A program made the position numbers and the translations under genes. Below, one piece after another: positions 8,870-49,648 of a DNA stretch of 64,000 nt. Every line of letters begins with the position of its first letter. The first letter of the stretch is position 1. This DNA comes from an uncultured Gammaproteobacteria bacterium (GTDB lineage: Bacteria > Patescibacteriota > Microgenomatia > Levybacterales > GWA1-39-11), in assembly GCA_964394645.1 (NCBI GenBank), contig CAYMYC010000001.1, forward strand, positions 117,299-181,298. The letters run 5' to 3'. The notes under the pieces are model-generated. The model had not been told where the DNA came from. It did not search any database and saw only the letters and a program-made list of their open reading frames with translations.

Positions 8870-9505
8870 TTATTCGACAGTAATAGACGTTATCTTATCT
8901 CCTGCTACCATTTTGCGCACCACATCCATTCCTTCTGTGACCTTTCCGAAAATAGTGTAATTATGAGGTAATTGTTCATTGTCTTGCCACATTATAAAAA
9001 ATTGTGAGCCATTTGTATTGGGTCCAGAATTTGCCATAGCCAATACTCCTTCCTTGTACCCCTCTTTGTAAGAAGGGGTTTCTGGGTTGAGTTCGTCTTC
9101 AAATGGCTTTCCATATATTGAATATCCGCCGGTTCCATTTCCGCTTGGATCTCCGCCTTGAATTACGAATCCAGGTTCAACTCTATGAAATGTTAAACCG
9201 TCATAAAATTTATTTTTCGCGAGTGTAGCAAAATTAGTTGCAGCTTTCGGTGCGTCTTGTGGGTAAAGAATTAATCGAATAACGCCTTTGGCGGTAGTAA
9301 TTGTTGCAGTAGTTGCTGTAATTGGTGTAAATGTTGGCATAGGTGCTGATTGCTTTACTGTTGGTATTATAACTGATTGAGGAGCTGTTGCATCCAGAAT
9401 ATTTGTCTCAGGTGTGTTTCCCTTCTCCCCGCGGTTTGTTGCAAAAATAAGTACTCCTAATCCTAGAACAATTATTATAACAAAGGCTATAAGAGTACGA
9501 TTCAT
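8870..9505 (-). CDS. Membrane-anchored cyclophilin-type peptidyl-prolyl cis-trans isomerase
   Basis: N-terminal TM helix then cyclophilin core (FHRVEPGFVIQGGDP, GSQFFI, MANSGPNTNGSQFF). Confidence 0.85.
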   Translation of the reverse strand: MNRTLIAFVIIIVLGLGVLIFATNRGEKGNTPETNILDATAPQSVIIPTVKQSAPMPTFTPITATTATITTAKGVIRLILYPQDAPKAATNFATLAKNKFYDGLTFHRVEPGFVIQGGDPSGNGTGGYSIYGKPFEDELNPETPSYKEGYKEGVLAMANSGPNTNGSQFFIMWQDNEQLPHNYTIFGKVTEGMDVVRKMVAGDKITSITVE

Positions 9506-9592
9506 ATATCAGTAAATTGTATCAAAAAGATTAAAAAGAACAAGTGACACTTTATCCTTGTCTGATATGGCTGGCTTGAATACGTTAAGGTA

Positions 9593-10702
9593 TTAAAGTT
9601 CAGTAAGTTTTTTTGAGGACTTTGTAAGGGAAATAATTTCTTTCCCGTTAAACAATACAGTATCTTCTATTCGTACGCCTCCAAAATTACTAATATAAAC
9701 CCCGGGCTCAATGGTAAAAGGAATGTTAGGGGTGAGTAAGTCGTTATATCCAGGAGATATGTGTGGTAATTCATGAACCTCAAGTCCCACCCCATGTCCT
9801 ACAGAGTGAGGTACTGATGGGTAGCCTTGAGATAGGATATAATTCCGGGAAGTCATATCTATGATTTCACCACTAAGCTTCTGAGTAGGTTCTCTTATTT
9901 GCAGTTCTAAAGCTTTTTCTTGTCCGATAAGTACTGTGTCATATATTTTTTGGAATTTTTTTGGTGCTTTTCCTATAAAAAATGTTCGGGTCATATCAGC
10001 ACAATATCCATTTACTTTTGCTCCAAAATCAAGCAGAATAATGCTTTTTCCCCCAAGCTTTTTATTACTTGTTTTATGGTGTGGTATTGCTGAGTTTTCT
10101 GAAAAGGCAACAATTGTTGGAAATGCGAGTTCTCCTCCTGATTCACGAATATATTTTTCAATTTCCCAAGCTATTTCTTTTTCGCTTTGACCTATTCTTA
10201 TTGTCTTGAGAATATGAGAATAGGTGTTATCTGTTAATGCGCATGCAGCTAGTAAATCTTGCAGTTCTTCTGTATCTTTGGTTTGTCTTATGAATTCAAT
10301 AATATCCTCTGTTAATATCAGCCTTACATTTTTCAGTTTTTTGAAATATTTGTACTCTGAATATGTTAAATTTTCTTCAAATCCAATTATTTTCAGCTTT
10401 TCACGGATTAGTATTTCCTGAATTTGTGGAATAAGTCTTTTCTCTGTTCCAAATTCTATGACCGTTGGGTTTTGTTTAGTGTAAGATATAGCTTCAACGC
10501 TTTTTCTAGCACCTTCATATAGTCTTGGATCGGCAAATATATAGAGATTTGTATTTGTTAATAATGCAAAACCTTCCCGTTCGTTAGCGCTAAAGCCATT
10601 AAAGCCTGTGAGGTAATTGATATTATAGGAAGATGAGATAAGCAGAGCATCAAGTTTTTCAGTCTCTAAAATGCGACGTGCTTGTTCTGTCCTATTTTTC
10701 AT
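9593..10702 (-). CDS. M24 family Xaa-Pro aminopeptidase (PepP-like)
   Basis: Creatinase N-domain plus M24 pita-bread motifs (HGVGLEVHE, D..GYCADMTRT). Start chosen at MKNRTEQ (10702) rather than the upstream ORF-track Met. Confidence 0.8.
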   Translation of the reverse strand: MKNRTEQARRILETEKLDALLISSSYNINYLTGFNGFSANEREGFALLTNTNLYIFADPRLYEGARKSVEAISYTKQNPTVIEFGTEKRLIPQIQEILIREKLKIIGFEENLTYSEYKYFKKLKNVRLILTEDIIEFIRQTKDTEELQDLLAACALTDNTYSHILKTIRIGQSEKEIAWEIEKYIRESGGELAFPTIVAFSENSAIPHHKTSNKKLGGKSIILLDFGAKVNGYCADMTRTFFIGKAPKKFQKIYDTVLIGQEKALELQIREPTQKLSGEIIDMTSRNYILSQGYPSVPHSVGHGVGLEVHELPHISPGYNDLLTPNIPFTIEPGVYISNFGGVRIEDTVLFNGKEIISLTKSSKKLTEL

Positions 10703-41754: not shown

Positions 41755-41863
41755 ATTCTTTTAATTCTTGTTCTTTTCGAGTTTTATTGTAACAACTTTC
41801 GTATTAATTTCAATCATACTCACTATATCAAAAAGTAGCAAAATATTCATTTCGGTAAAAATT

Positions 41864-41878: not shown

Positions 41879-43447
41879 TTACGGGATGTAGTATAGTGGT
41901 AGTACGCTGCGCTGGGGGTGCAGTAGTCCGCGTTCGATTCGCGGCATCCCGACACTGAGAGAAGAGCCGGCGGAAAGCTCCGCCGGTGAAAGTCCCGCAA
42001 TCGCGGGACGGATTGAGTCAAAGCCCTTTTTAAAATTGGCGTAAACACAGCCATCCTCTAAAAAGAAGTTCGAGCCGACATGTTTTGCTAGATTTGCCAA
42101 ATCTAGTTGGTTATTTTTTGCGCGCGCTATTTTGTCGCATGACGATGCGACATTTATGAATTCCCTAAGAGGTTCGAGCGAGCGAGAACCTCCCTCCTCC
42201 AAAACCTCTATCTTTTCCTGAATTTTTATCTTTTCTTCAAAGAGTTCATTCTTCTTTCTCTTGTAGTTATCGCCCTCAATGTCCCCCTCAAGATAACTAT
42301 CAAGAAGAATGTCCATCTTCTTATCGAGAGACGAAGCTTCCTCTTTTAATTTTCTCATCCTTACATCCGATAAGCCTTTTTCGGATATTTCATCCCTTTC
42401 TACTAACCCCAGCCACCGGTCGCGCCATGAGGTAGGGATGGAAACGGATAAAACAATTTTTCTTAATTGGTCTTCAAGTTCTTGGGCAGTCACCATTTTT
42501 TGGGAACACGGACCCATCTTTTTGGTACAGCGGTAATAAATATAAGTTGCCGAACGGTTAGTCCCTTTATAAAACTTTACATGCCTTTCGGCAGTTACGG
42601 AAGCACCGCACTCTTTACAGCGAAGAAGACCCAAAAACGTAAAGACCGGAAGCTTACTATTTTGCCTAACTTTTCTATTTAACTTTTCCTGGACTTTATT
42701 GAACAACTCTTTAGAGATGAAAGTCTTGTGGGTCCCGAGATGATACTCGCCGTTGTATTTTAAAATGCCGATGTAGAATTTGTTGGACAATATCTTTCTG
42801 ACTTGGTTAAGGTGTAAAGGCTTTCCGTTTTCCTTTTTTATCCCCAATTTTAAAAAGTAATTTGAAATATCCGTAAAGGTTTTATCCTGTTCGCAAAACA
42901 ACTCAAATGCCCCTTTTATGGCCCGAGCTTCGTTTGGGACTATATCAATGCCTCGAGTCTTCGGGTTGTTGGAATAACCATAGGTAGTCTTCCCAGGCCA
43001 GACGCCATTTCGTATCTTTTGCCGAAGCCCCCTTTTAACATTCTCGCTAAGATTGTCGATGTAATATTTGCTTTGGCCGAAGGCGATATTTAACATGAAC
43101 TTTCCCTGTGGAGTGTTATCAAACCAAAATGTAGGAAACTTTAAATCCTTTAATTTTCCGGTATCAAGCAAATAGATGATCTTGCCCCCGTCAATAGAAT
43201 TTCTTGCAAGTCTGTCCGGATGCCAAGCAAGAATACCACCGGCTCTGCCTCTTTCGATAAGTTGCATGACTTTAGCAAATTTTTCCCGTCCTGGGGCTTT
43301 GGCGGTCTTTGCCTCTTCAATAACTTCGAGGATCTCAAGCTTCTCCCGTTTTGCGAACTCAAAAAGCTCAGCAATTTGCGCTTCAATGGATAAAACCTGC
43401 TTATCGGCTTCGTCTCTTGATTTACGGCAGTAAATTATGTATTTCAT
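41879..43447 (-). CDS. Large serine recombinase (resolvase/invertase catalytic domain + recombinase domain + Zn ribbon + coiled coil)
   Basis: N-terminal YCRKSRDE catalytic-Ser motif; Cys-rich ribbon (CKECG...CTKKMGPC); 522 aa. The last ~55 codons are read through IR1-L and antisense to tRNA-Pro. Confidence 0.85.
   Translation of the reverse strand: MKYIIYCRKSRDEADKQVLSIEAQIAELFEFAKREKLEILEVIEEAKTAKAPGREKFAKVMQLIERGRAGGILAWHPDRLARNSIDGGKIIYLLDTGKLKDLKFPTFWFDNTPQGKFMLNIAFGQSKYYIDNLSENVKRGLRQKIRNGVWPGKTTYGYSNNPKTRGIDIVPNEARAIKGAFELFCEQDKTFTDISNYFLKLGIKKENGKPLHLNQVRKILSNKFYIGILKYNGEYHLGTHKTFISKELFNKVQEKLNRKVRQNSKLPVFTFLGLLRCKECGASVTAERHVKFYKGTNRSATYIYYRCTKKMGPCSQKMVTAQELEDQLRKIVLSVSIPTSWRDRWLGLVERDEISEKGLSDVRMRKLKEEASSLDKKMDILLDSYLEGDIEGDNYKRKKNELFEEKIKIQEKIEVLEEGGSRSLEPLREFINVASSCDKIARAKNNQLDLANLAKHVGSNFFLEDGCVYANFKKGFDSIRPAIAGLSPAELSAGSSLSVGMPRIERGLLHPQRSVLPLYYIP
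41882..41952 (+). tRNA. tRNA-Pro (anticodon GGG), hand-folded
   Basis: Cloverleaf: acceptor CGGGATG/CATCCCG, D-arm GTAT-AGTGGTA-GTAC, anticodon stem CTGCG/TGCAG with loop CTGGGGG (G37), T-arm CCGCG-TTCGATT-CGCGG, discriminator A; CCA not encoded. Confidence 0.8.
41950..42052. repeat. IR1-L: ~103-bp inverted repeat arm (near-exact partner at 43487-43590)
   Basis: Reverse complement of 43487-43590 (1 mismatch, 1-nt indel). Contains internal GC hairpins CCGGCGG-aaagct-CCGCCGG and GTCCCGC-aatc-GCGGGAC. Confidence 0.9.
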
Positions 43448-43486
43448 GGCAGTTAAAATTTTCGCGTTTATCTCCTCTTCTTTTTT

Positions 43487-43590
43487 GGCTTGTGTTTACG
43501 CCAATTTCAAAAAGGGCTTTGACTCAATCCGTCCCGCGATTGCGGGACTTTCACCGGCGGAGCTTTCCGCCGGCTCTTCTCTCAGTGTCG
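43487..43590. repeat. IR1-R: inverted copy of IR1-L, 40 nt upstream of the recombinase start
   Basis: Direct alignment to the reverse complement of 41950-42052. Confidence 0.9.
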
Positions 43591-43647
43591 AGATCTATGA
43601 AAAAGTTAGAACTCTTCTTTGTTAGCTCGGCCGCTTCGCGGCCTCGC
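43587..43647. repeat. IR2-L: 61-bp inverted repeat arm abutting IR1-R through a shared GTCG
   Basis: Exact reverse complement of 48923-48984; contains GGCCGC-ttc-GCGGCC hairpin. Confidence 0.9.
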
Positions 43648-43876
43648 CAAAACATGTCGGCTCGAATTTGAAACGCGAAAATTTTTTTCAATTTAAAATG
43701 GCCGCTCTGGTTGAACACAACAGGATCTCTCCAATTGTCCAAAGCGGCCATCAAAAAAGAGATCCAAAAATGTTGTGTTCGATTTTAATATACCAGTTTC
43801 ACGAGTTTAATCAACTAAGAGTATCTATAACAAATATATAGTTTTGCTACAATTAAAAAAGATGTGAACATCTAGT

Positions 43877-45691
43877 ATGAAATTTCCCATTAAGAAATTG
43901 TCCGAGTTTAGAACAACTATTAAATCATCAAAGAGATTGCTGGGGTTACTTTGGAACATTGATAAATGGCTATTTACAGGAAATTTGATTTCAGTAAGTG
44001 TTCCAGCAATTATTCCTTTTGTTAACGCTTATATCTATAAGCTTATTATTGATTTAATTATTGCGGGAGTCGGTAGTACTGACTTTGACTATCAGCAACT
44101 TTTTTGGCTTATAGCCATGAGAGTAGGCACACTTTTTATACAAGATGCTGCTTTTTCTGCACAAAACTATTTTGAAATGCTTCTTTGGACGAAATTTCCT
44201 GTGCATCTTTATCAAGCTGTTCTTACAAAACTATCAGATTTAGATGTTCAATACTTTGAAGATAGTTCTTTTAAAGATAGATTGGAAAAGGTAAGAGAGG
44301 CATATGCATGGAGGCCGTTAAATATGCTCTCACATCTGTTCTACAGCTTCCAAGGCGTATTACAAGTTTTAATTGCACTAGTTGCAATAGCAACCCTTAA
44401 TTGGTTTTTAATCTTTTTAATCCTTCTTGTGGCTATCCCAACATTTGTGAATCAAACTCACTACGCAAAAATCACTTGGGGTGTATGGCAGGATAACTCT
44501 CCCTATAGAAAGAAGTTTTGGTACTTATCAGATTTAATTCAGGGGGGACAAAGTGTGAAAGAGATAAAAATTTTTCAAATGGCCCCAAAGTTTTTGTCTG
44601 AACTGACTAACATCTATAACAAGTTTGTTAAAGACAATGCAAAAGTAGCTAAAAAGCAACTTCGTACAAATATCTTATTTAACATGCTTGGTACGGGTGT
44701 ATATATTGGAATTGAGATCTTTATTATTCTTGCTGCCGTTGCAAAGAGGATTTCTATAGGGGATATAACCTACTTTACAGCTGTAGTTAGTAATTTCCAA
44801 AATGGAGTCAATGGATTATTCCGTAATACTTCTCAATTGTTTGACCAAAGTCTTTATGTTCAGGAGATGTTTGAAGTTTTAGATATTAAGTCAAAAATAA
44901 CCCAACCTGCTAATGCTGTAAAAATAGACATACATGAAGGACCTAAAATTGAGTTCAGAAATGTAAGTTTTATTTATCCCGGGGCCGGAGAAAAAATCCT
45001 CAATGATTTTTCCCTGACAATTGAACCGGGTCAGAAGATTGCGTTTGTTGGAGAAAATGGCGCTGGTAAAACAACAATTGTGAAATTATTAGCCCGATTT
45101 TATGATGTAAACGAAGGGGAAATCTTAGTAAATGGCATTAACCTTAAAGAACTTGATTTACCAACTTGGTATAAAACTTTAGGGGTTCTCTTTCAAGACT
45201 TTATTAGGTATGAGTACCCATTTCACGAGAATATATACTTTGGAAAGATTTTTGAGCCTGAAAATATTGAGGAAATTAAGCATGCTGCAAAATTGGCAGG
45301 AGCAGATACCGTAGCTTCACAGTTACCTAAGGGCTACGACCAAATGCTTGGAAAGACTTTTGAGGGAGGGATTGATTTATCTGCAGGCCAATGGCAAAAA
45401 GTGGCGCTAGCAAGAGGTTTTCTACGAGATGCCCCTATTCTAATATTAGATGAGCCAACGGCAGCAATTGACGCGAAAGCGGAAGCAGAGATATTTGATA
45501 GGGTGGAAAGGTTATCTAAAGATAAAACTGTAATTATAATTTCCCATAGATTTTCTACCGTAAGAAATGCCGATAAGATTTACGTGATAGAGAAAGGTAA
45601 AATAAAAGAAGATGGCAGCCACGAACAGCTTATGAGGGAAAATGGAACTTATGCAACCCTATTTAACCTTCAAGCAAAAGGTTATAAATAA
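43877..45691 (+). CDS. ABC transporter, fused permease/ATPase (type I exporter)
   Basis: 6 TM N-terminal domain; NBD with Walker A GENGAGKTT, signature LSAGQ, Walker B ILILDE. Confidence 0.9.
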   Translation: MKFPIKKLSEFRTTIKSSKRLLGLLWNIDKWLFTGNLISVSVPAIIPFVNAYIYKLIIDLIIAGVGSTDFDYQQLFWLIAMRVGTLFIQDAAFSAQNYFEMLLWTKFPVHLYQAVLTKLSDLDVQYFEDSSFKDRLEKVREAYAWRPLNMLSHLFYSFQGVLQVLIALVAIATLNWFLIFLILLVAIPTFVNQTHYAKITWGVWQDNSPYRKKFWYLSDLIQGGQSVKEIKIFQMAPKFLSELTNIYNKFVKDNAKVAKKQLRTNILFNMLGTGVYIGIEIFIILAAVAKRISIGDITYFTAVVSNFQNGVNGLFRNTSQLFDQSLYVQEMFEVLDIKSKITQPANAVKIDIHEGPKIEFRNVSFIYPGAGEKILNDFSLTIEPGQKIAFVGENGAGKTTIVKLLARFYDVNEGEILVNGINLKELDLPTWYKTLGVLFQDFIRYEYPFHENIYFGKIFEPENIEEIKHAAKLAGADTVASQLPKGYDQMLGKTFEGGIDLSAGQWQKVALARGFLRDAPILILDEPTAAIDAKAEAEIFDRVERLSKDKTVIIISHRFSTVRNADKIYVIEKGKIKEDGSHEQLMRENGTYATLFNLQAKGYK

Positions 45692-45735
45692 ACTTTTTTT
45701 CCCAAAAGACAATTAACCCATCGAGTGGCGGCACA

Positions 45736-46275
45736 CTATTTTCTATTTCTTGAGGCATATCGACGAAGAGATTCACTACCGACAAGGGCACCCATGAAGC
45801 TTACTGATGCTAGAAAGGATGCTGCAGCTCTATTGTGAGAATCTTTCCCAACCTCTTTACTATCATCTTTCTTAAGATCCTCCTCCAGATACTTTAATAC
45901 CATGTCTCTTTTTTCCTCTACTGGAAGTTCTTCGAAGCCATCTAGTTTTTCTTTGTTCTCTTCGTAGAAGTCCTTTACTTGATCTGGTATCGCTTGCTCT
46001 AATCCTTCAAAAGTAAACCCTTGCAAAGGGAGGGGGTCAACATCGTCAACTTGATCTTTGATTTTAGCTTCATTTCTTGCGTCTCCATATGCTACTGAAT
46101 CGTAAGTAACTGATGGAAGGAATGTTGCCATAGATGCAAGACCCGCTATACCCATTGCCGCATTTAGACCCTTCCACCCACGATGCTCATTTCTTGGGGA
46201 TTGTTCCCTCAACGTGTCTTCTTGACCCAACTGATCTTGCTGTTCTTCTTCCATATAGTAAAGTGAGTTTAACAA
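45736..46275 (-). CDS. Hypothetical acidic protein
   Basis: 179 aa, Glu/Asp-rich; no family assignable; inside the IR2-bounded cargo. Confidence 0.45.
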   Translation of the reverse strand: MLNSLYYMEEEQQDQLGQEDTLREQSPRNEHRGWKGLNAAMGIAGLASMATFLPSVTYDSVAYGDARNEAKIKDQVDDVDPLPLQGFTFEGLEQAIPDQVKDFYEENKEKLDGFEELPVEEKRDMVLKYLEEDLKKDDSKEVGKDSHNRAAASFLASVSFMGALVGSESLRRYASRNRK

Positions 46276-46378
46276 CTCTCAAATTTTCTGTCAAATTTGT
46301 GTAACCCATCAAAAAGGCTGACTGAGTTGGATAAATAGACTTTTGACTTTTAAATTAGCAGTGTGATTCAATAGGTTA

Positions 46379-47068
46379 ATGGATGGTGACATAGAAAGTT
46401 CTCCTCAATCGGTGATTACATCACTTGATGTCAGCGAAAATAAAGCCAACTTCATGCATGAAGACCAAAAAGAAGCACCCGAAGCTCCAGAGTTTGGTAT
46501 TAAACTCTCTCCTGGTATACGATTGTTTCATGGAAGGTCGTCAACCGAAGACATTGATATCTGGCCCCTTCCGGTCGCCAAAAGAACGGTCAATGGTCTT
46601 GGGTTTTATTGCACAACCGACCCAGCAATTGCAAATCCATACGCTAAGATAGATCTAAGAAATGAATCTGCCGCCCGGGTTTATCCTCTTACACCGAAAG
46701 AAGAATTAACGCTTTTTAACGGTTTTATAAAAGATAAAGGTACTTTTTCAAAATATCTAGCAGAGAAAATTTTTGATGAAAATGATGAGAGAAAAGAAAA
46801 GTTTTTAGAAGAGATTAGAAGACTTAGGGAGATGAATAAAGATGGATTCGTTTTCAGCGATAATGTATTAGGAGTAATTCTGTCTTTCGTTGATGAGGAA
46901 AAAGCAAAAGATCTTGAGGAAAAGAAAATTCTTGAAAATGAAGTTCTGAAAAAGGTAGGTTATGATGGTAAAGGATGCGAGGAAAACGGTGTTATGGATG
47001 ATACAATTCTGATTTTTGATCCTGGAAAATTAGAAACGGAATTTAATGCAGAGCAAAAAGCCGCATAG
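46379..47068 (+). CDS. Hypothetical protein
   Basis: 229 aa; no confident family; weak RLFHGRSST motif noted. Confidence 0.5.
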   Translation: MDGDIESSPQSVITSLDVSENKANFMHEDQKEAPEAPEFGIKLSPGIRLFHGRSSTEDIDIWPLPVAKRTVNGLGFYCTTDPAIANPYAKIDLRNESAARVYPLTPKEELTLFNGFIKDKGTFSKYLAEKIFDENDERKEKFLEEIRRLREMNKDGFVFSDNVLGVILSFVDEEKAKDLEEKKILENEVLKKVGYDGKGCEENGVMDDTILIFDPGKLETEFNAEQKAA

Positions 47069-47122
47069 CAATCATAGAGTGAATTCCACTAAAATAGATT
47101 CATTAGATCGAGAAGTAAATAT

Positions 47123-47506
47123 ATGGAAAAACGAATTGGCACAGTAGGATTCATTGTTAATAACAATAAAGTTTTGTTAGCACATATTCAATACCCAGAG
47201 GGCAAAAAATTATGGAATGGGATCGGAGGATTTGTTAATAAAGGAGAAAAACTTGAGGACGCCTTAATAAGAGAAATCAGCGAAGAAACATATATACAAG
47301 TTAGCAAAGACGAAGTGCGTTTGGTGAAAGAATTGGACGAGGATATCAGACTTTTAATTTTTAAAATTAATAACTGGAAAGGAGAACTTAAAATTAAAGA
47401 CTCATCAATTAAGGAGTTAAGGTGGTTTAAATTTGATGAAATTCCATTTTCAGAAATGCATGATGGAAATGAAAAGTGGCTACCTGACTTATTAAAAACA
47501 CCATAG
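47123..47506 (+). CDS. Nudix hydrolase
   Basis: Nudix box GGFVNKGEKLEDALIREISEETYI. Confidence 0.8.
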   Translation: MEKRIGTVGFIVNNNKVLLAHIQYPEGKKLWNGIGGFVNKGEKLEDALIREISEETYIQVSKDEVRLVKELDEDIRLLIFKINNWKGELKIKDSSIKELRWFKFDEIPFSEMHDGNEKWLPDLLKTP

Positions 47507-47540
47507 TTACATTGTAATTTCGTATACTAATATTAATACA

Positions 47541-48338
47541 ATGAAAATTCATTTTATTGGATTATCATGTTTTCTTATTGAAAATGCCGCTGGCTTTCGA
47601 ATACTAGTTGATCCTTTTGAGGATAACCCCGAGTGGACGTTGGGTCCTATATTTCCAAAGGAATTTAGCAGTAAACCCTTTGGAACAAATATTGTATTGA
47701 TGTCTGAAACTGATGCTGATCATGCAAGGGCTCCACATGAATGGCAACAAAATGCACCTATTGTAAAGCCTGACAATAATCCTTTTCCAAATTTAAATTT
47801 GAGTGGTACATTAGTGCATGAATGGAATGGTGAAGCTTGCATTGCCTGGCATTATACTATTGATGGTATACGGCTTGCTCATTTTTCAGACCATGCTCAC
47901 CCGTTGACCGTAGAACAACTTACAGAAATAGGAAATCCCGATATTATCTTTTACCCACTTCCAAAAGTATCGTGGGACGATCAAGAAGCGTTTAATATCA
48001 TAAGAGAAGATATTAGCAAGCTCAAACCAAAAATTGTAATTTGGGCACATTTTATAGCACCTAAAAATATGCCTTCAGTGGATGATAAAGAAGCGCTCAG
48101 ATCATATTTTATCCAATATTTTAAAGACAACGCATCGACTAACTTGGGATACAAAGGTGAAGACAGTTTTATGGAATTAGGAAATATGATATACAGTGGT
48201 TTCAAACTCACAAATGAATTAAACGGAAAGATAATGGAAGCACCTACGCTGGAGCTTGACCAAACAACAGTTGATGCTTTTCAGCAACCAACTCCATTTT
48301 TCTTCACCAGTATGCTTGCTACTTCAAAAACTGAATAA
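47541..48338 (+). CDS. MBL-fold-like hydrolase (paralog of 8207-8869)
   Basis: N-terminal beta-lactamase-fold pattern (FLIENAAGFRILVDP..ETDADHA). Confidence 0.55.
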   Translation: MKIHFIGLSCFLIENAAGFRILVDPFEDNPEWTLGPIFPKEFSSKPFGTNIVLMSETDADHARAPHEWQQNAPIVKPDNNPFPNLNLSGTLVHEWNGEACIAWHYTIDGIRLAHFSDHAHPLTVEQLTEIGNPDIIFYPLPKVSWDDQEAFNIIREDISKLKPKIVIWAHFIAPKNMPSVDDKEALRSYFIQYFKDNASTNLGYKGEDSFMELGNMIYSGFKLTNELNGKIMEAPTLELDQTTVDAFQQPTPFFFTSMLATSKTE

Positions 48339-48339
48339 T

Positions 48340-48920
48340 ATCAAAACAAGTCATAAGCCTGTGGTGATCCACATCGGTTTTTTGGATTTTTCTTTTCTTG
48401 GGCGGCATCCACCGCCCCCGCCCGCATGGAATTGCGCCCTAAAAAGAGAAAAATACTTTACTGGTAGCCAATGAATTAGTAGGAACTATACAAAGTATTT
48501 TTCTCCCACACGAGCCCCGCGAGAATTTGTCTTGTTAAAAGAGAACGCGGGGCGAGTCAGTAGGTGTCTTCTTAATGGTTTTAAACAGGAAGGGACTAAA
48601 TAAAAGTCGGCGGGGGCGAATAAGCGGACACCCCTCCGACGGCGCTTCCTTTTTAAATGGAAATAATTTTTCGGAAGAGACTGTATTAAGGTTTTAGAAC
48701 TGGCAAAACTTTGGCGAGTTGCGCCTTAGTGCAACCTGCGCCCAAAGGAAGGGGTCGCCGCCACAATATCTTGGGTGGGTTGGGTTTTGTAGGATAAGAC
48801 TCACGGTTTGTTTTATATTCTTTTTTAAAGGGAGTACAATAATCCAATATTTATAATTTGTCCGCGTAGGGAGGGATTTTGGGACAATGACAATTTCTTT
48901 TTTCTTCGCGCGCAAAAAAT
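48340..48920. other. GC-rich hairpin-dense noncoding region (candidate structured RNA or recombination region)
   Basis: Multiple perfect GC stems in AT-rich context: GGGCGG-catcca-CCGCCC, GCCCCGCG...CGCGGGGC, GTCGGCGGGG...CCCCTCCGAC, GTTGC...GCAAC. No credible ORF. Confidence 0.5.
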
Positions 48921-48922
48921 AA

Positions 48923-48984
48923 CCTAGCGAGGCCGCGAAGCGGCCGAGCTAACAAAGAAGAGTTCTAACTTTTTCATAGATCTC
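48923..48984. repeat. IR2-R: inverted copy of IR2-L closing the 5.3-kb cargo segment
   Basis: Exact reverse complement of 43587-43647. Confidence 0.9.
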
Positions 48985-49051
48985 GACTGAATAAAATATG
49001 AGGAAATGATTTTCAAGAACCTCTTCAGTAAGTGTCTGGTATACTGAGAAA

Positions 49052-49648
49052 ATGAATTTGTTTACTTTTTTGCTTCAGAGCAATATCCAAGTAATTATAG
49101 GAGTGCATCTAGTAGGTGTAGTAATAGGATTTGGAGGCGCAATAATCACAGATATACTTTTTTTAAAATTCGTAAGAAATGGCAAAATCGTCAAAAGTGA
49201 GGTGGGTGTTCTTGTAACTATGTCAAAAATAATTTGGGCAGGCATTTTGATAATTGCTGTTACCGGTCTTTTTATTTTACTTTCAGATGTAGAACGCTAT
49301 ACTCATTCAGCAAAATTTTTACTTAAAATGTTGGTGGTTTGGGTAATAGTTATTAATGGATTAATCTTAAATTTTGTTATAACGCCTACATTACCTCTTG
49401 TCAATTTTGGGAAAATAAGTAATTCAAAGGATAAGACAAATAAAATAAGAAGCTTAGTATTTATAACAGGTGCAGTTTCCGCAACTTCATGGTGGACTGT
49501 TTTTATATTAGGAATGTTACGTTTTTCTCCTGTGTCTTTTACAGTTCTTCTGAGTATCTATTTGTTAATATTGGCAGGTGCAATTATAGGGAGCCTTGTA
49601 TTAAATAGTTTACTTGCAAAAGGCATTATCAAATATTCATCTTTGTAG
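49052..49648 (+). CDS. Integral membrane protein (hypothetical)
   Basis: 198 aa, about 5 TM helices. Confidence 0.5.
   Translation: MNLFTFLLQSNIQVIIGVHLVGVVIGFGGAIITDILFLKFVRNGKIVKSEVGVLVTMSKIIWAGILIIAVTGLFILLSDVERYTHSAKFLLKMLVVWVIVINGLILNFVITPTLPLVNFGKISNSKDKTNKIRSLVFITGAVSATSWWTVFILGMLRFSPVSFTVLLSIYLLILAGAIIGSLVLNSLLAKGIIKYSSL

Follow-up and report, generated by a model that had tools for sequence, protein, structure and literature searches.

The window analyzed here, a 64,000-nt stretch of DNA, is part of a Patescibacteria chromosome that carries rpoB/C, a ribosomal protein operon, recA, and recX. Within it, next to a tRNA-Pro(GGG) gene (41882-41953, plus strand), lies an inserted element of 7,034 bp (41954-48987). 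On the minus strand, a gene at 41879-43447 encodes a large serine recombinase (LSR) of 522 aa with the Pfam domains Resolvase, Recombinase, and Zn_ribbon_recom; the protein has more than 7,500 relatives, and its catalytic Ser10 is invariant. The cargo includes an ABC exporter gene (43877-45691, plus strand), a 179-aa ORF, a 229-aa ORF, a NUDIX gene, and an MBL-fold gene. The 229-aa ORF (46379-47068) gave a weak match to an ADP-ribosyltransferase family (PF18760, E = 1.3e-3, below the cut-off); it lies beside the NUDIX and MBL-fold genes and may represent defense or toxin-type cargo. The right end of the cargo (48339-48906) consists of 570 nt that hold no convincing ORF and gave no Rfam match, with a G+C-rich patch at about 48700-48800. 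Between the recombinase and the exporter, at 43698-43790, sits the subject of this study, a set of interleaved long palindromes.

The limits of the element were set by comparison with three relatives, L206, L207, and L208 (one Levybacteria genome and two metagenome contigs), in which S9, recX, recA, tRNA-Pro, and a homologue of the window ORF at 49052-49648 follow one another with nothing between. The empty site in these relatives reads ...ATCCCGAC|TGAATGAAATAGG and, in another extract, ...CATCCCGAC|TGAATGAAATAGG; an empty attB in the source population would read GGCATCCCGACTGAATAAAATATG. In short form, attB is ...CCCGAC|TGAATG in all three, and the window has ...CCCGAC|ACTGAG at attL and ...CTCGAC|TGAATA at attR. 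The left junction, attL, is formed by the 3′ end of the tRNA gene, with the core ATCCCGAC at 41946-41953; the left-end repeats (41946-42126, plus strand) lie in the 3′ coding region of the recombinase and comprise a Z arm (41946-42049), a copy of X (42066-42087), and W (42109-42126). The right end, attR (48907-48987, plus strand), comprises a copy of W (48907-48924) and a Y arm (48927-48987) that ends ...ATCTCGAC | TGAATAAAATATG, where host DNA begins. A core is common to three sites: tRNA|Z (...ATCCCGAC|ACTGAG; P1, 41946-41953), Y|Z (...ATCTCGAC|ACTGAG; P2, 43587-43594), and Y|host (...ATCTCGAC|TGAATA; P3, 48980-48987). Given the empty site of the relatives, 41954-48987 is an insertion with attL, attR, and an internal, inverted attP-like copy. 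The catalytic, recombinase, and zinc-ribbon domains, the empty attB, and the short shared core are those of an LSR integrative element; no candidate for a directionality factor was identified. We considered and rejected two other origins. A fixed chromosomal gene beside recA is inconsistent with the empty site in relatives and with an adjacent tRNA that differs between loci, and a phage origin was dropped because a search of 2.9 million viral contigs returned only one weak relative of the LSR.

The last 55 or so codons of the recombinase cross the Z repeat and then run antisense across tRNA-Pro. In L001, L003, and L004, as in the window, the ORF continues through the att core and the whole of the antisense tRNA gene, and the protein would thus have one tail when the element is integrated and another when it is excised. 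Among the recombinase family members examined (L005-L084), at least 12 tRNA species are abutted, always antisense at the 3′ end of the gene; over about 60 loci, the neighboring tRNA was Pro, Val, Trp, Leu, Lys, Glu, Tyr, Gln, Arg, Ile, Ser, or Ala. Many of these contigs (L005-L084) break at or beside the recombinase, as expected for repeats or for population heterogeneity. A second LSR gene, unrelated to the first, carries the distal Y arm at its 3′ end in L032 (7200-8795) and in L003 (6616-8160). The terminal part of Y is similar to the T-arm and acceptor 3′ half of a tRNA (GGTTCTAAC...ATCTCGAC). These features suggest that each element, with its right end, provides the place where another can land, and that tandem arrays arise in this way.

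The recombinase gene is flanked by near-identical inverted repeats of about 100 nt (Z; 104 nt, 98%; 41946-42049 and 43491-43594), and the cargo is flanked by 61-nt ones (Y; 100%; 43587-43647 and 48927-48987). The Z repeat flanking the recombinase is nearly universal over about 60 loci. Immediately upstream of the recombinase, an att-like block (43455-43685, minus strand) has the order K-X-Y|Z-K′ in about 50 loci (in the window, K is 43671-43685, X is 43648-43669, Y is 43587-43647, Z is 43491-43594, and K′ is 43455-43469). The shared core ATCTCGAC of the block is at 43587-43594, and K′ ends 7 nt before the recombinase ATG. An intact, inverted attP-like copy, Y|Z, is retained between the predicted promoter and the recombinase AUG, a design common to about 50 loci; the flanking of the gene by Z and of the cargo by Y results from it. 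Part of the leader is an antisense version of the 3′ end of the gene in circular permutation, X-Y|Z there corresponding to Z-X in the gene; the short X and W repeats, of the leader and the right end, reproduce in antisense the conserved codons for AKxVGSNFF and ARAKNN. In a distant subfamily, a third repeat, V, matches ORF nt 137-157.

Both interleaved stem sets given in a preliminary description of this DNA are present, with all of their repeats. The first is a 13-nt inverted repeat, ATGGCCGCTCTGG (43698-43710) and CCAAAGCGGCCAT (43739-43751), 92% complementary with one mismatch. The second is composite: GAACACAACA (43713-43722) is fully complementary to TGTTGTGTTC (43771-43780) over 10 nt, and GGATCTCT (43723-43730) is fully complementary to AGAGATCC (43758-43765) over 8 nt, so that 43713-43730 faces 43758-43765 plus 43771-43780 with five extra bases on one side. 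The repeats follow the order A-B-A′-B′ and are thus interleaved. The fold predicted for a 111-nt stretch was better than that of 200/200 dinucleotide shuffles on either strand (z = -4.5 for plus and -3.9 for minus). The motif lies just inside the boundary of the 61-nt inverted repeat (43587-43647/48927-48987) and 87 nt upstream of the exporter ATG (43877), and in both respects the earlier account was accurate.

The same two helices recur in Patescibacteria at 27 genome loci and 70 metagenome loci. In three relatives of the recombinase (63-70% identity), the interleaved helices occupy the same place; their sequences differ, and complementarity is kept. An unguided MAFFT alignment of 15 loci had 98.8% of cells paired, compared to 79% in shuffles and 30-41% when the partner strand was slid, with changes on both sides at 16/23 pairs. 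Compensatory changes were found at 7/10 pairs of outer S1, at 9/9 pairs of inner S1 (model-guided alignment, 27 loci), and at 9/13 pairs of S2 (alignment A3). Two covariance models built from the aligned sequences were searched against 84 genome loci and gave 27 matches, all on the recombinase-sense strand and upstream of the recombinase; the match in the window spans 43686-43791 on the minus strand (90.8 bits, E = 1e-17). A metagenome scan was made with one degenerate pattern for loop L1 and S2a, leaving S2b, S1, and the promoter box unconstrained. It returned 80 loci, of which 70 contained the full motif, for 71 matches. In this set, 95.7% of positions were paired (68.8% in shuffles), and the three helix segments were each 94-97% paired, with compensatory changes in all three. 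Absence of the palindromes from homologous loci had been set beforehand as the refuting test; they are present there, with compensatory changes. Two loci contain two copies on the same strand (L056, 91-192 and 2563-2672; L098, 2291-2401 and 5055-5158), probably reflecting tandem or degenerate elements.

Which strand and which gene does the motif serve? Wherever a downstream gene could be identified, it was an LSR on the same strand. Of the 71 metagenome matches, 32 have the start of a same-strand LSR downstream and 16 lie at contig ends; the remaining 23 lack one, several of them being evident deletion relics. The neighbors on the exporter side, in contrast, vary between homologous loci. With a consistent LSR on one side and varying genes on the other, the RNA belongs as a module to LSR genes, not to the exporter. 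The strand is indicated independently by position 10 of S2, a U·G pair present in 15/15 sequences of the MAFFT set and in 62/66 of the metagenome set; read on the plus strand, this near-invariant pair is a C·A mismatch. Furthermore, an extended -10 promoter-like box, TGGTATATT (43787-43795, minus strand), has the form TATAnT, usually with TG before it, and stands at the same distance in nearly all 98 aligned sequences, a TGnTATAnT box at a constant 6 to 7 nt before the first base of S1 (7 nt in the window). A scan for promoter-like sequences marked a minus-strand site at 43814-43787 whose second hexamer is the TATATT of this box. The fixed U·G pair, the box at constant distance, and the same-strand downstream gene together place the RNA on the minus strand of the window. 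From the conserved -10 box, transcription is predicted to start at about 43780, where S1 has its first G; promoter, start site, and 3′ end of the RNA are all predictions from sequence. We conclude with high confidence that the interleaved palindromes form an RNA structure on the minus strand that is conserved and linked to the recombinase.

The preliminary description had read the motif on the other strand, as a terminator or switch controlling the ABC exporter. Its proximity to the exporter ATG would favor that reading, and the plus strand does fold well, as any palindrome does on both strands. However, homologous loci keep the motif next to unrelated genes on the exporter side, the conserved wobble becomes a mismatch, and our scan found no terminator-like site at the motif on either strand; the sole such site in 43300-44100 is at 43554-43573. 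The T-rich run noted there (43781-43790) does exist, as promoter spacer together with part of the minus-strand -10 box. Nor does the minus-strand RNA look like an intrinsic terminator, in which a G+C-rich hairpin with a small loop runs directly into a series of U residues; here the "loop" of S2 is 28 nt and the tail is UUURAGUU. We consider plus-strand control of the exporter to be scarcely credible. The earlier interpretation is thus partly supported: a candidate structured RNA with two helix sets stands, whereas the strand and the gene assigned to it were wrong and a terminator is unlikely.

A role at the level of DNA, such as a cruciform, a folded single strand, or the recombinase accessory site proposed at first, has some appeal in an element rich in inverted DNA repeats, with the motif only 29 nt from the att-like X/Y repeats. 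Here the genuine repeats of the element provide a useful contrast. Their random mismatches show no G·U bias (28 against 31 in Z and 21 against 27 in Y), with transversions and indels present; the few mismatches in K/K′ (5 G·U, 4 A·C, and 6 transversions) also show none. The absence of such a bias led us to reject an RNA-level reading of Z, Y, and K; together with the many transversions and indels, it marks them as repeats at the level of DNA, which S1 and S2 are not. The palindromes, with their U·G asymmetry and clean compensatory pattern, are unlike this. Their position relative to the att block also changes between classes of loci (see below), whereas they are always 5′ of the recombinase gene. 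A DNA-level role therefore seems very improbable.

Read on the minus strand, the RNA begins with S1, a bulged hairpin of 10 + 8 bp. Its 5′ strand (43758-43780) consists of outer GAACACAACA (43771-43780), a 5-nt bulge, UUUUU (43766-43770), and inner GGAUCUCU (43758-43765). Loop L1, UUUUUG (43752-43757), follows; this U-run, with A or G after it, is nearly invariant (alignments A3, A6, and A8). The 5′ strand of S2, S2a (AUGGCCGCUUUGG, 43739-43751), lies within the loop of S1 and is followed by loop L2 (ACAAUUGG, 43731-43738), in which the leading ACA is conserved. The 3′ strand of S1 (43713-43730) is made of inner AGAGAUCC (43723-43730) and outer UGUUGUGUUC (43713-43722). After a linker, AA (43711-43712), the 3′ strand of S2, S2b (CCAGAGCGGCCAU, 43698-43710), completes the 43698-43712 segment, so that 13 nt of the S1 loop pair with 13 nt past the hairpin. 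The covariance-model match extends over a conserved 3′ tail, UUUUAAAUUGAA (43686-43697), for which the family consensus is UUURAGUU.

The topology, S1a-S2a-S1b-S2b, is that of an H-type pseudoknot, with both helices supported by covariation. We read loop lengths from the model alignments and set aside unconstrained minimum free energy folds, in which S1 was over-extended. By these alignments, S1 is 18 to 19 bp plus the bulge and the linker between S1b and S2b is 1 to 2 nt. With linkers so short, loop 3 cannot span the groove of S1 in a coaxial stack of the helices, and full-length S1 and S2 are unable to form a classical H-type pseudoknot; we rejected that geometry. We imagine either a strained, side-by-side knot or two states, S1 and S2, that alternate.

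Two helices that both have covariation support and yet are sterically hard to form together could be the signature of a sensor, riboswitch-like or tRNA binding, in which a ligand or an RNA shifts the balance between S1 and S2 and couples recombinase expression to a cellular signal. The conserved loop bases would resemble a binding pocket, and S2a has UGG at its end and S2b has (A)CCA at its start, recalling the contact of the T-box with the 3′ end of tRNA; we take this resemblance as a lead only. Against such a sensor, none of the 4,227 Rfam families matched, there is no ligand candidate, and the sequence of the RNA does not track the targeted tRNA, the same S2 sequence occurring with Val, Gln, and Lys targets. 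On balance, we regard a sensor as unlikely. The RNA itself is found in two arrangements.

In the first arrangement (class I, the type in the window), the RNA is followed by the block K-X-Y|Z-K′ of about 300 nt and then by the AUG; in the window, S2b ends at 43698 and the ATG is at 43447, placing the RNA about 250 nt from the AUG. In the second, compact arrangement (class II), the AUG comes 5 to 10 nt past S2b. The class II LSRs are 25-50% identical to the window LSR, have the same Pfam domains, and also end over an antisense tRNA. In L011 (about 9400-9600) and L068 (about 9400-9620), minus strand, the RNA is absent and a divergent ORF occupies the same position; judged by eye from its translation, this ORF upstream of K-X-Y|Z-K′ reads like an XRE-type helix-turn-helix regulator.

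Since S2b ends only 5 to 10 nt before the AUG in the compact relatives, a cis-acting gate is the most likely role. We propose that the 83-nt stretch at 43698-43780, minus strand, is the 5′-terminal structured domain of the LSR transcript and acts in cis as a gate on expression of the recombinase, a reading to which we assign a probability of roughly 0.55. In the compact class, S2 would occupy the zone before the AUG where ribosomes land, and the RNA would keep translation of the recombinase low or conditional. In the window, a distance of some 250 nt to the AUG means that the RNA cannot block the ribosome site directly. One can envision that the 300-nt att-like block came between RNA and AUG there, bracketed by the K/K′ inverted repeat, with K′ covering -8 to -22 of the AUG and the RNA kept at the 5′ end, perhaps for binding of a regulator or for stability of the transcript. 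The leader as a whole has a predicted fold of -128.5 kcal/mol (z = -7.9), in which a K:K′ helix closes the att block beside the AUG; any RNA role of this helix is hypothetical. We infer transcription of the domain, its start point, its effect on translation, and any trigger.

A Shine-Dalgarno (SD)-like G-run is found within S2b in 9/15 matches with an AUG nearby, compared to 17/78 of the others. SD/anti-SD pairing is weakly supported as a general mechanism of the gate. Across the genes of the window, an SD-like tetramer at -20 to -4 precedes 10/54, compared to a background of 12%, and the genome appears to rely little on SD-led initiation. The conserved unpaired bases (U6A and ACA) and the fixed U·G pair hint at a specific partner and are unexplained by simple occlusion. 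Along with these bases, the selection that still acts on the RNA in class I would allow for a protein or a ligand as its partner.

The RNA could instead be an independent small RNA, acting in trans on host or element, in the form of a stable fragment from the 5′ end or of a transcript that stops after S2. In favor of this are the conserved promoter-like box that it has to itself, the helix that encloses its 5′ end, and the U-rich tail that follows S2b; orphan copies with no LSR nearby and a locus with two copies (L056) also exist. However, UUURAGUU makes a poor terminator, and the scan found none there; the orphans look like deletion relics; and in the compact class, with the AUG within 10 nt, the RNA must be part of the mRNA. 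We therefore see an independent small RNA as quite improbable, and the structure as more plausibly a leader domain of the LSR message.

The RNA is linked to LSR subfamilies of 25-70% identity, both where it adjoins the AUG and where it does not, its structure is still under selection in the window class, and its unpaired bases and U·G pair are nearly invariant. All of this would suit an RNA that works with the recombinase protein, as a site for autoregulatory binding, as a scaffold, or as a directionality factor, with the LSR or an accessory protein binding it. LSRs are known, however, to recognize att sites through protein domains, and many members of the recombinase family do without the RNA and have another gene in its place. 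We also found no guide-like complementarity of the RNA to its own att cores (mean longest run, 6.0-6.4 nt, compared to 5.8-6.2 nt for the sites of other loci), and we rejected the idea of a guide RNA on this basis. A partner of this kind seems unlikely, if conceivable. In a more elaborate form that we hold to be just as unlikely, a dedicated RNA bound by the recombinase or a cofactor would set the timing or direction of recombination and work together with the internal inverted attP copy and a switch based on flipping of the recombinase segment between the Z repeats. If so, such a flip would toggle the recombinase gene between its gated leader and readthrough from the tRNA promoter; the LSR family would gain its first described RNA component, and tRNA-targeting islands in Patescibacteria a new control logic.

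The element does have inverted recombination sites flanking a segment, with Z arms and Y arms that share one core. Among about 60 assembled loci, none showed the alternative orientation. Two relics are suggestive: L101 (1330-1740) has the order RNA-K-X-Y|Z-X, as expected after a flip of the recombinase segment, and L137 (6618-6950) has RNA-K-rcZ|anti-tRNA-Gln, consistent with a flip followed by deletion between copies of K. With one orientation throughout the assemblies and only these relics in its favor, we do not favor an invertible-segment switch. In a third relic, L135 (3369-3544), the RNA abuts an antisense tRNA-Trp.

Rfam 15 contains no match that overlaps 43686-43791 at E ≤ 1 or at the gathering score, and none overlapped the motif in six further loci at E ≤ 0.1. 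Two sub-threshold matches elsewhere, Acido-1 (43553-43617, minus strand; 27.6 bits, gathering score 50) and CRISPR-DR6 (41758-41793, minus strand; 21.3 bits, gathering score 39), were taken as chance; the former falls on G+C-rich hairpins of the Z repeat. Neither the RNA nor the element family was described in the literature that we searched. The RNA would thus be an uncatalogued family in a known functional niche. To our knowledge, LSRs, which are prized as genome-engineering enzymes, have been regarded as protein-only systems; a widespread, covariation-supported RNA on many divergent LSR genes offers a direct handle on the natural control of these enzymes. Little is known about the mobile DNA of Patescibacteria, whose genomes are tiny. 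In these bacteria, the RNA marks a large, undescribed family of small cargo elements at many tRNA genes. The motif is short and abundant and is open to probing, reporter fusions, and binding assays.

The nearest functional analogues would be the leader structures of transposase mRNAs, as in IS200 and IS10, and the pseudoknots that mask ribosome-binding sites. A stem-loop in the 5′ UTR of IS200 hides the ribosome-binding site, and fold-back inhibition operates in the leaders of IS10 and IS50. As in these leaders, a cis-encoded RNA structure stands at the start of the message for the recombinase or transposase of a mobile element, a helix strand lies directly upstream of the AUG in the compact class, and the presumed purpose is to keep the enzyme scarce. 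The enzyme here, however, is an LSR rather than a DDE or HUH transposase; the RNA, with its conserved loops and pair of interleaved helices, has a more complex structure; and it is kept even about 250 nt from the AUG and has no sequence relationship to those leaders. The H-type pseudoknots of preQ1-II and SAM-II likewise have a helix between a loop and the 3′ tail, with its 3′ strand at the ribosome-binding region, and conserved unpaired bases. In our RNA, the helices are far longer (18 and 13 bp), the linker is far shorter (1 to 2 nt), the geometry is not the classical one, and neither an Rfam match nor a known ligand is associated with it.

The bridge (seek) RNAs of IS110/IS1111 are also structured noncoding RNAs located 5′ of a recombinase gene in a mobile element. 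Their recombinases are of the DEDD (RuvC-like) type, whereas the one here is of the serine type (Resolvase, Recombinase, Zn_ribbon_recom); our RNA has no loops complementary to target or donor DNA, and the target tRNA does not track its sequence. The att-like block brings to mind the res site of Tn3 and gamma-delta, a recombination site upstream of the recombinase gene that doubles as an operator. In our element, too, its own recombination-site sequence (Y|Z) lies between the predicted promoter and the recombinase start codon; unlike res, it is associated with a large, integrase-type serine enzyme rather than a small resolvase, and its repeat arms are about 100 nt long and nearly identical to the functional ends. 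An operator, an inversion switch, and a spare site are all candidate roles for the internal attP copy.

As elements, the closest analogues would be cargo islands that target tRNA genes, such as tycheposons. Like the elements described here, tycheposons are small cargo elements at the 3′ ends of tRNA genes, with integrase lineages that target different tRNAs (10.1101/2020.12.28.424599), and in both, tandem and degenerate copies accumulate beside the tRNA. They differ in that the integrase of our element is an LSR whose ORF crosses the junction into the antisense tRNA, and in that the element, hosted by Patescibacteria, keeps an intact, inverted, attP-like copy inside itself, upstream of the recombinase.
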